Positions 1-9,275 of a stretch of 9,306 bases of DNA are shown here, one piece after another. A program made the translations under genes and the position numbers. Position 1 is the stretch's first letter. The number at the start of each line of letters is the position of its first letter. The notes under the pieces are model-generated. The model made no database searches. It was not told where the DNA came from and saw only the letters and a program-made list of their open reading frames with translations. The stretch is from Escherichia coli. Lineage in GTDB: Bacteria; Pseudomonadota; Gammaproteobacteria; Enterobacterales; Enterobacteriaceae. Location: the NCBI RefSeq assembly GCF_003334255.1, contig NZ_QOWU01000089.1, one strand, 5' to 3'.

Positions 1-74
1 TGATGGAAATGGAAGCCACGCAAGCACCTTAAAATCACCATCATACACTAAATCAGTAAGTTGGCAGCATTACC
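1..74 (-). mobile_element. IS1-family insertion sequence, terminal fragment (element body continues off the left edge of the window); terminal inverted repeat at 52-74; InsA start codon at complement 17-19
   Basis: Positions 52-74 (atcagtaagttggcagcattacc) are the reverse complement of the IS1 terminal inverted repeat GGT(G/A)ATGCTGCCAACTTACTGAT as I recall it (one mismatch to the left repeat). The minus strand of 1-51 continues as IS1-like internal sequence, with GTG GCT TCC ATT TCC ATC (M-A-S-I-S-I, an InsA-like N-terminus) starting at complement 19. Recognition is from memory, not a search. Confidence 0.8.
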
Positions 75-220
75 GAAATCCCCATCCTTTAGGGCAGTGA
101 GGATGTCAATAATAGCAGACCACATCATGAGTCATTCTGACCGACACATGCCAGAAGCAGAGGCTCCATCCCATTTTATACCTACCTTATAACACTTAGA
201 AAAACAACATGTTAAAAATG

Positions 221-275
221 TCTATTGGAAACAATTTTATTTCCAATTGTAATGATAACCATTCTCATATTAATA
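221..275 (+). promoter_or_regulatory. fecI promoter region with overlapping Fur box (Fur box core about 248-266)
   Basis: TTGGAA (225-230), a 17-bp spacer, then TGTAAT (248-253) resembles a sigma70 -35/-10 pair. TGTAATGATAACCATTCTC (248-266) matches the 19-bp Fur consensus GATAATGATAATCATTATC at about 15 of 19 positions and overlaps the -10. This is consistent with the established Fur/iron repression of fecIR. Exact promoter elements are inferred, not mapped. Confidence 0.6.
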
Positions 276-310
276 TGACTACGTGATAATTAACTTTTGA
301 TGCACTCCGC

Positions 311-828
311 ATGTCTGACCGCGCCACTACCACAGCTTCCTTAACGTTCGAGTCGCTTTATGGCACACATCACGGCTGGTTGAAAAGCTGGCTGACGCGC
401 AAACTCCAGTCTGCTTTTGATGCAGATGACATTGCCCAGGACACTTTTTTGCGGGTAATGGTCAGCGAAACGCTCTCGACGATCCGCGATCCTCGCTCCT
501 TCCTCTGCACTATCGCCAAACGCGTGATGGTGGACCTGTTTCGCCGAAACGCGCTGGAAAAAGCGTATCTGGAGATGCTGGCGCTTATGCCGGAGGGGGG
601 AGCTCCTTCACCTGAGGAACGCGAAAGCCAACTCGAGACCCTACAACTCCTCGACAGCATGCTGGACGGGCTAAACGGCAAAACACGTGAAGCGTTTCTG
701 CTTTCGCAACTGGATGGTCTGACATACAGCGAGATTGCGCACAAACTCGGTGTTTCCATCAGCTCCGTGAAAAAATACGTGGCGAAAGCCGTCGAGCACT
801 GCCTGCTGTTCCGTCTGGAGTATGGGTT

Positions 829-832
<4 letters not shown>
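311..832 (+). CDS. fecI: ECF (extracytoplasmic-function) RNA polymerase sigma factor FecI (sigma-19), 173 aa
   Basis: ORF of 173 aa beginning [28 protein letters not shown], with a C-terminal helix-turn-helix-like segment ([24 protein letters not shown]) typical of sigma region 4. Length and sequence agree with FecI as I recall it. The stop overlaps the fecR start (ATGA at 829-832). Confidence 0.97.
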
Positions 833-4193
<3,361 letters not shown>

Positions 4194-8413: not shown

Positions 8414-8745
8414 TTATACAGGCCAGTTGATGGATCGATTGTTATCAATGATATCTTTATGAGTCGGTGTCTCACCCAGCTTACCGAAGCTGGCATAAAG
8501 TGAAGGCAGACGGGCCCGTCCTTCTCCCTTTTTCGCCAGAGGGAAAGCGCGAAGCATGGTGGCAGCCTCCCAGTCACAACAATAGGATGGTGTGCACGGC
8601 TGCTGACGCCATGATTCAGCGATAGAGCCGGAAAATACGGGGTCAAAGCCGGTATCATTAACCAGAGTCATCGTGACCTGTACTGCGGCTGGATGATCTC
8701 CTGCTACTGCAACTGCTAGGCGACCGCGGCTCCCTTCAGGTAGTC
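8414..8745 (-). pseudogene. N-terminally truncated ORF of unknown function abutting the IS3-family element end (about 110 codons of native sequence; frame stays open into the IS terminal repeat)
   Basis: Minus-strand frame ...LPEGSRGRLAVAVAGDHPAAVQVTMTLVNDTGFDPVFSGSIAESWRQQPCTPSYCCDWEAATMLRAFPLAKKGEGRARLPSLYASFGKLGETPTHKDIIDNNRSINWPV-stop (stop at complement 8414-8416). The track ORF 8414-8827 begins with a Met inside the IS end, so the native 5' part appears to have been replaced by the insertion. I do not recognise a family. Confidence 0.35.
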
Positions 8746-9232
<487 letters not shown>

Positions 9233-9239
9233 TAGAGTA

Positions 9240-9275
9240 AGAGGCAGGGCGTAGTCGGACTATTTCCCTGCCTCT
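9240..9275. repeat. Perfect 10-bp inverted repeat (AGAGGCAGGG ... CCCTGCCTCT) with a 16-nt spacer, just beyond the point where IS3-family homology ends
   Basis: Read directly: 9240-9249 AGAGGCAGGG and 9266-9275 CCCTGCCTCT are exact reverse complements, separated by CGTAGTCGGACTATTT. Confidence 0.7.

Follow-up and report, generated by a model that had tools for sequence, protein, structure and literature searches.

Does the end of an IS1 element lying next to the fecI promoter influence the genes behind it, or does it merely record how the locus was assembled? The question arises at the left edge of the 9,306-nt stretch of Escherichia coli DNA analysed here (the window), where an IS end at position 74 is separated by ~150 bp from TTGGAA (225-230), the putative -35 element of fecI. 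This closeness was pointed out in an earlier interpretation made from the letters alone (the sequence-only reading) and is correct; the same reading suggested that the element belongs to a divergent IS1 lineage and could affect fecIR expression or reflect the assembly of the locus. We consider it very likely that the element, which is IS1F, is an immobilised relic inherited with fecIR-fecABCDE, with little effect on fecIR. The main features of the window are as follows.

74 to 1, minus strand: left end of IS1F, with 100% identity to IS1F-annotated elements
74 to 52, minus strand: IRL of IS1F, the 23-bp terminal inverted repeat, read directly
67 to 62 and 45 to 40, minus strand: pIRL-like promoter from a promoter scan (-35 CTGCCA, 16 nt, -10 TATGAT)
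19 to 17, minus strand: GTG start codon of insA, with codons M-A-S-I-S-I down to base 2
75 to 110, plus strand: relic of an IS200/IS605-family tnpB 3' tail and right-end hairpin (GAAATCCCC..hairpin..GAGGATGTCAAT)
106 to 174, minus strand: ykiE, a small ORF of 22 codons annotated by PGAP in all matching genomes
225 to 230 and 248 to 253, plus strand: candidate fecI promoter (TTGGAA, 17 nt, TGTAAT) proposed in the sequence-only reading
242 to 286, plus strand: Fur operator of fecIR, identical to the published 45-bp EMSA oligomer
248 to 266, plus strand: core Fur box TGTAATGATAACCATTCTC
311 to 832, plus strand: fecI, ECF sigma factor
829 to 1782, 1869 to 4193 and onwards up to 7856, plus strand: fecR, fecA and fecBCDE, respectively

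Between fecE and the downstream border of the fec module lies an 85-aa conserved hypothetical gene (8414-8671, minus strand; WP_000177060.1), which travels with the module. The border itself is a fragment of an IS3-family transposase (~8754-9241, minus strand), and the very end of the window (to 9306, minus strand) corresponds to the 3' end of a group II intron in the best-matching genome, with ltrA just beyond the window. The group II intron was not matched in a gathering-mode Rfam scan of the whole window.

The reverse complement of positions 1-74 (GGTAATGCTGCCAACTTACTGATTTAGTGTATGATGGTGATTTTAAGGTGCTTGCGTGGCTTCCATTTCCATCA) reads, from 74 down to 1, as the terminal repeat GGTAATGCTGCCAACTTACTGAT, followed by TTAGTGTATGATGGTGATTTTAAGGTGCTTGC and the first codons of insA, GTG GCT TCC ATT TCC ATC A. 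In a megablast search of complete E. coli genomes these 74 bp are identical to IS1F-type copies (74/74, E = 3e-29), while IS1A-annotated copies match at 65/74 positions (87.8%, E = 3e-14), and PGAP labels the matching elements 'IS1-like element IS1F family transposase'. The comparison with annotated IS1 copies, in line with the alignment proposed as a check in the sequence-only reading, thus gives a match far above chance and confirms that positions 1-74 belong to IS1F and form its left end. K-12 has four IS1 types, of which IS1F is one. Beyond these 74 bp the element lies outside the window, and its full sequence was read in five fec contexts: a K-12 derivative (L001, 2307-3074), ST131 (L003, 5233-6000), BL21 (L004, 5233-6000), the bovine strain E2865 (L005, 5307-6074) and A27 (L006, 1733-2500). 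In these related loci, outside the window, IS1F is 768 bp long and contains insA, encoding an InsA of 91 aa, the A6C -1 frameshift site TTAAAAAACTC and the insB' frame. Its terminal repeats of ~23 bp begin with GGT(A/G)ATG, the IRL being GGTAATGCTGCCAACTTACTGAT and the IRR, taken from the same five loci, GGTAATGACTCCAACTTACTGAT.

The terminal repeat had been described as a variant mixing features of the left and right repeats, and this is borne out, as each repeat of IS1F resembles the opposite IS1A repeat at one base: the IRL is GGTAATGCTGCC..ACTGAT in IS1F and GGTGATGCTGCC..ACTGAT in IS1A, while the IRR is GGTAATGACTCC..ACTGAT in IS1F and GGTAATGACTCC..ATTGAT in IS1A. The proposed InsA N-terminus, MASISI, also stands, since the start codon is GTG (19-17) and the codons after it read A-S-I-S-I. 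Over the whole element IS1F differs from IS1A-type copies at 72-73 of 768 bp (90.2-90.6% identity), the fec-linked copies showing 66-73 mismatches to IS1A, so the suspicion of a divergent IS1 lineage was right, yet this lineage is already known as IS1F. The IS1F of K-12 has been described as having 73 mismatches to IS1A and as adjoining the fec operons, from which it is divergently transcribed, and its transposition was not detected (PMC12428005). The fec-linked copies differ at 3-10 positions from intact IS1F-type copies, which have the same repeats and MASISI start and are found on an O157:H7 chromosome and on one plasmid (L011, L012). Because such intact copies occur elsewhere, the IS1F lineage is real and comprises more than one decayed copy.

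How firmly this element is attached to fecI can be seen when positions 1-310 are searched by megablast in 5426 complete E. coli genomes. The whole segment is present in 2597 of them, mostly at 100% identity, and the fecI upstream region in 2751, which means that the IS1 junction is found in ~94% (2597/2751) of the genomes with this region. The other side of IS1F is far less uniform. The yjhU-IS1F junction of K-12 occurs in only 359 genomes and is thus a minority state, while the alternative far flank is found in 1662; in many other genomes the yjhU flank continues into a sugar-transporter gene exactly at the point where IS1F starts in K-12. The location of the whole module varies too: in K-12 it neighbours yjhU, in BL21 it lies by rbsD/kup, and ST131 and E2865 carry it in an IS66/phytase-like island. 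Since the flanks differ at a constant junction, the fec-side junction is old and fixed and the opposite flank has undergone more than one replacement, we infer by IS1-mediated adjacent deletion or by IS1-IS1 recombination.

A few records depart from this arrangement. In NZ_CP029741.1 (AR_0085) the match to the fecI upstream region ends at window position 295, with a second match elsewhere in the record, so the region ~15 bp before the fecI start codon may have been rearranged or have received an insertion in that strain. A frameshifted IS1A-like copy of 766 bp (L002, 2113-2878) lies upstream of fecI in a Klebsiella-type cluster on an E. coli plasmid and is a second, independent association of IS1 with the fec border. 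On an Enterobacter plasmid the homology is lost near window position 118, beside an IS21 gene.

The IS1F copy next to fec can hardly be active. In all five contexts a TAG codon replaces a conserved TGG in the InsAB' transposase frame (the stop falls between VVV and MTDGW), and in ST131 and BL21 a glutamine codon of the element has become a further stop; PGAP flags the fec-linked copies with 'internal stop'. The intact IS1F copies L011 and L012 have neither stop, with tryptophan at the position of the common one, and the fec-linked copies differ from each other by 0-6 bases, or 0-5 when counted as mismatches over the whole element. The stop and the far flank were seen in genomes with fec regions 99.9-100% identical to that of the window, the best match to the whole window being 99.9%. 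A target-site duplication of 8-9 bp, sought at both known left flanks, is absent in all five contexts: the fec-side flank is GAAATCCCC, while the far flank is AACATGGTC in the K-12 type and TCGGGAGGA in the other four. At an IS1A control locus (L013) an 8-bp duplication, GAAATTAA, is present on both sides. The missing duplication points to a later rearrangement and does not exclude the element from the IS1 family. With its TAG stop, the lack of a duplication and a far flank that varies by lineage, the fec-linked IS1F is best described as a dead, inherited relic.

The fec side of the junction holds traces of another mobile element, best seen in a rare set of E. coli IncF plasmids (represented by 7 complete-genome records and by 5 entries of PLSDB) with an E. 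coli-type fec cluster in which the similarity to the window breaks exactly at position 75 and no IS1 is found there. In one of them (L007, 2090-2536) the same bases continue leftwards for ~400 bp as a tnpB pseudogene with a frameshift. When its frames are stitched together, the translation matches NF040570 with E = 6e-20 over profile positions 281-388 of 389, the C-terminal third of the RNA-guided nuclease TnpB, with a score that is below the curated cut-off because the gene is a fragment, and it matches PF07282, the RuvC/zinc-ribbon C-terminal region, with E = 4.7e-12. The fragment is itself cut by a fragment of an integrase gene. Intact tnpB genes on Pseudomonas and Acinetobacter plasmids end in NILALGHERPGEGIPGV and NILALGHERLAVGIPHLAKA, each followed by the stop codon, and that of L007 ends likewise in NILAVGYCSLTAEIPIL. 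The two intact genes, L007 and the window have in common the motif (G/A)AATCCCC-hairpin-G(G/A)GA(G/A)(G/A)ATGTCAA(T/G), which the Klebsiella-type locus shares from TCCCC onwards, and TCCCC..hairpin..G.GAG.ATGTCAA is invariant in these five sequences, two of them intact tnpB 3' ends. Right after GTCAA(T/G), at window position 110, the fec loci and the intact elements cease to be similar, and for this reason we assign positions 75-110 as the last 36 bp of an IS200/IS605-type element.

As the tnpB homology crosses the breakpoint at position 75 only in L007, this locus represents the uninterrupted state and the arrangement with IS1F is derived. Loss of IS1F by deletion in L007 was also considered and rejected, since both the tnpB frame and the DNA homology run straight across position 75. 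Neither tnpA (the Y1 transposase) nor the left end of the IS200/IS605-type element was found in the window or in L007. Rfam searches of window 1-400 in E-value mode, and of the window, L007 and L008 in gathering mode, gave chance-level matches only, with neither an omega-RNA nor the IS605-orfB motif detected, and an NCBIfam search with the short tail peptides alone gave no match. In the literature searched we found no paper linking fecI with IS605 or tnpB, which is weak evidence that the observation is new.

The small gene ykiE (174 to 106, minus strand), which overlaps the edge of this relic, is transcribed towards IS1F and divergently from fecI. It is listed among validated small proteins as ykiE-insA-7 (PMC7815308). 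Its peptide is not conserved, because in Klebsiella-type fec loci a 1-nt insertion frameshifts the gene and leaves ~15 codons. The RNA of positions 125 to 55 is predicted to form a hairpin of -23.2 kcal/mol (z = -3.0 relative to shuffled sequences), in which the opening bases of the IS1F repeat would pair with the tnpB-relic region. The PMC7815308 supplement records an RNA 3' end of the ykiE transcript at MG1655 4518479(+), 48 nt upstream of insA-7; by our mapping it falls at minus-strand positions 66-67 of the window, no more than a few bases from the predicted hairpin's foot. The hairpin is not a canonical intrinsic terminator, since a U-run is absent. It is conceivable, and we put it forward tentatively, that the hybrid hairpin created where IS1F cut the fossil right end of tnpB acts as a de novo terminator or stabiliser separating ykiE transcription from insA.

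What, then, of fecIR expression? In an alignment of six fec contexts positions 233-276 and 281-313 are invariant even in the divergent Klebsiella plasmid fec cluster L015, which is 83-85% identical to the window, while TTGGAA (225-230) is replaced there. At positions 248-266, 15 of 19 bases match the Fur consensus GATAATGATAATCATTATC. The 45-bp oligomer corresponding to window 242-286 was shifted by Fur in EMSA, and a single base change equivalent to position 269 raised promoter activity 8-fold (PMC2928814). The pair TTGGAA-17 nt-TGTAAT is a plausible candidate for a sigma-70 promoter, but its -35 hexamer is changed in L015 while the stretches at 233-276 and 281-313 are kept, which suggests that the true promoter hexamers may lie further downstream. 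Two alternative pairs can be proposed there, namely TTGTAA (247-252) and TAATAT (271-276) at a spacing of 18 nt, as read from the sequence, and TTCTCA (262-267) and GATAAT (285-290) at 17 nt, from a promoter scan. A mapped fecI transcription start was not found in the papers and supplements searched.

The comparison of fecI upstream regions with and without IS1, suggested in the sequence-only reading, shows that the Fur operator and the rest of positions 111-310 are conserved in the absence of IS1. In addition, insA transcription points away from fecI, and a promoter scan for an outward promoter from the IS end found no plus-strand promoter-like site in positions 1-260. A hybrid outward promoter starting from TTGGCA (61-66) was considered and rejected, as there is no acceptable -10 element at 16-18 nt. 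Since the Fur-controlled promoter is at least 150 bp away and is unchanged without IS1, insA points away and no outward promoter is found, IS1F probably has little or no effect on fecIR transcription, and judged from the sequence such an effect is unsupported. IS1 ends are bound by IHF and InsA, so that, through DNA architecture, the end may still act at long range on a promoter at a distance of 150 bp.

These data allow us to weigh the other ways in which the junction could be explained. If the variant positions had arisen during sequencing or assembly of an ordinary IS1A/IS1R copy, there would be no divergent element to account for, but the same 310 bp are found in thousands of independently assembled complete genomes, and the differences run across the whole element, at the 72-73 positions that define an annotated isoform. 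Because the IS1-fecI junction recurs in 2597 complete genomes, the variant bases are real and this explanation can practically be dismissed. A regulatory role for the IS1F end, as an outward or hybrid promoter, through bending by IHF or InsA, or as an insulator, with selection driving its near-fixation, would fit the retention of the junction in ~94% of fec-positive E. coli. IS1 ends reportedly form hybrid promoters with the -35 element in the terminal repeat (Prentki et al. 1986), and TTGGCA at 61-66 does face outward. However, TTGGCA is not followed by a usable -10 and the scan found no plus-strand promoter in 1-260, positions 111-310 with the Fur operator are conserved in complete fec clusters without IS1, such clusters being common on plasmids of Klebsiella, Enterobacter and E. 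coli, and linkage to a dead, non-excising element explains the retention equally well. We therefore regard a regulatory role of the IS1F end as very improbable.

Somewhat better placed, though still unlikely in our opinion, is the idea that IS1F still functions as an arm of a transposon, composite or one-ended, that moves fec with transposase supplied in trans by other IS1 copies. Both terminal repeats of IS1F are intact, the fec module is found at different chromosomal sites in K-12, BL21 and ST131/E2865, many genomes contain intact copies of both IS1F and IS1A (the median number of IS1-end matches is 10 per genome), and the far flank switches exactly at the IS1F boundary. Against this, the module is bordered downstream in the window by an IS3-family fragment and a group II intron, with no second IS1 there, the duplication around IS1F is absent, and transposition of IS1F was undetected in K-12 despite the presence of other IS1 copies (PMC12428005). 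Moreover, the islands concerned hold many other mobile elements able to move the region. The reading of IS1F as an immobilised relic inherited with the fec genes is in our view much the more probable, and the proposal that the insertion reflects the assembly of the locus is supported by the junction common to ~94% of the genomes, by the lack of a duplication and by the interruption of an older tnpB relic.

In the history that we propose, a tnpB-type IS200/IS605 element would have come first and would already have been a relic when a single IS1F copy inserted into it, in an ancestor of the E. coli-type fec module. Adjacent deletion by IS1 or IS1-IS1 recombination would then have replaced the far flank at least twice, and the transposase would have died afterwards, or may have been dead already. 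Since then IS1F has probably been a passive passenger at the left border of the mobile fec module.

Much of this picture is not new. The fec cluster is widely regarded as horizontally mobile, and IS1F has stood beside fecIR on the K-12 map for decades. IS1F itself, its place by fecIR, its divergence and its failure to transpose were already known, as the position, divergence and lack of transposition are published (PMC12428005) and fec is treated as mobile. What the present analysis adds is the stop codon common to the copies examined, the lack of a duplication, the existence of two different far flanks and the tnpB relic at the junction, which leave the concepts unchanged but make the history of the module's left border clearer: a tnpB-type element, then IS1F, then flank replacement. 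The fec genes have been linked to mastitis and, on plasmids, to reduced susceptibility to cefiderocol, and given these links the history of the left border helps in tracing the spread of fec. The classical studies of fec regulation in K-12 all used the IS1F-linked arrangement.

Comparison with known systems places the locus more precisely. The closest is the IS1F of K-12 (insA-7/insB-7, in the KpLE2 region), to which the window is identical over the 74 bp of the element and over the next 236 bp to fecI, with the same orientation, divergent from fecI. The window is not K-12 itself, as a comparison with the K-12 derivative over 3310 bp gives 5 mismatches and the window ends differently downstream, with an IS3 fragment and a group II intron. 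With canonical IS1 (the IS1A/IS1E/IS1R type) IS1F shares the length of 768 bp, the 23-bp imperfect repeats, the GTG start of insA 55 nt from the end, the A6C site and the InsAB' organisation. It differs by ~9.5% at the nucleotide level, by one base change in each terminal repeat and by an InsA reading MASISIRC..TE in place of MASVSISC..TD, while the premature stop and the absence of a target duplication set apart only the fec-linked IS1F from canonical IS1. Klebsiella-type plasmid fec clusters (pKPN-like and pLVPK-like) have the same gene order as the window and a conserved Fur operator, the identity between position 79 and fecI being 95-96%, while the divergent type is 83-85% identical from ~190 onwards. 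However, they lack IS1F at the position-75 site and carry other IS debris further upstream, the border being formed either by an IS1A-like copy in the opposite orientation 130 bp further out (L002) or by fragments of IS21-family elements and integrases (L008, L014). Finally, window positions 75-110 align with the last codons of tnpB and the right-end hairpin of IS200/IS605-family elements up to GTCAA(T/G), but only these 36 bp survive in the window, where tnpA, tnpB and the left end are all missing, so that in comparison with these elements the segment is a fossil.
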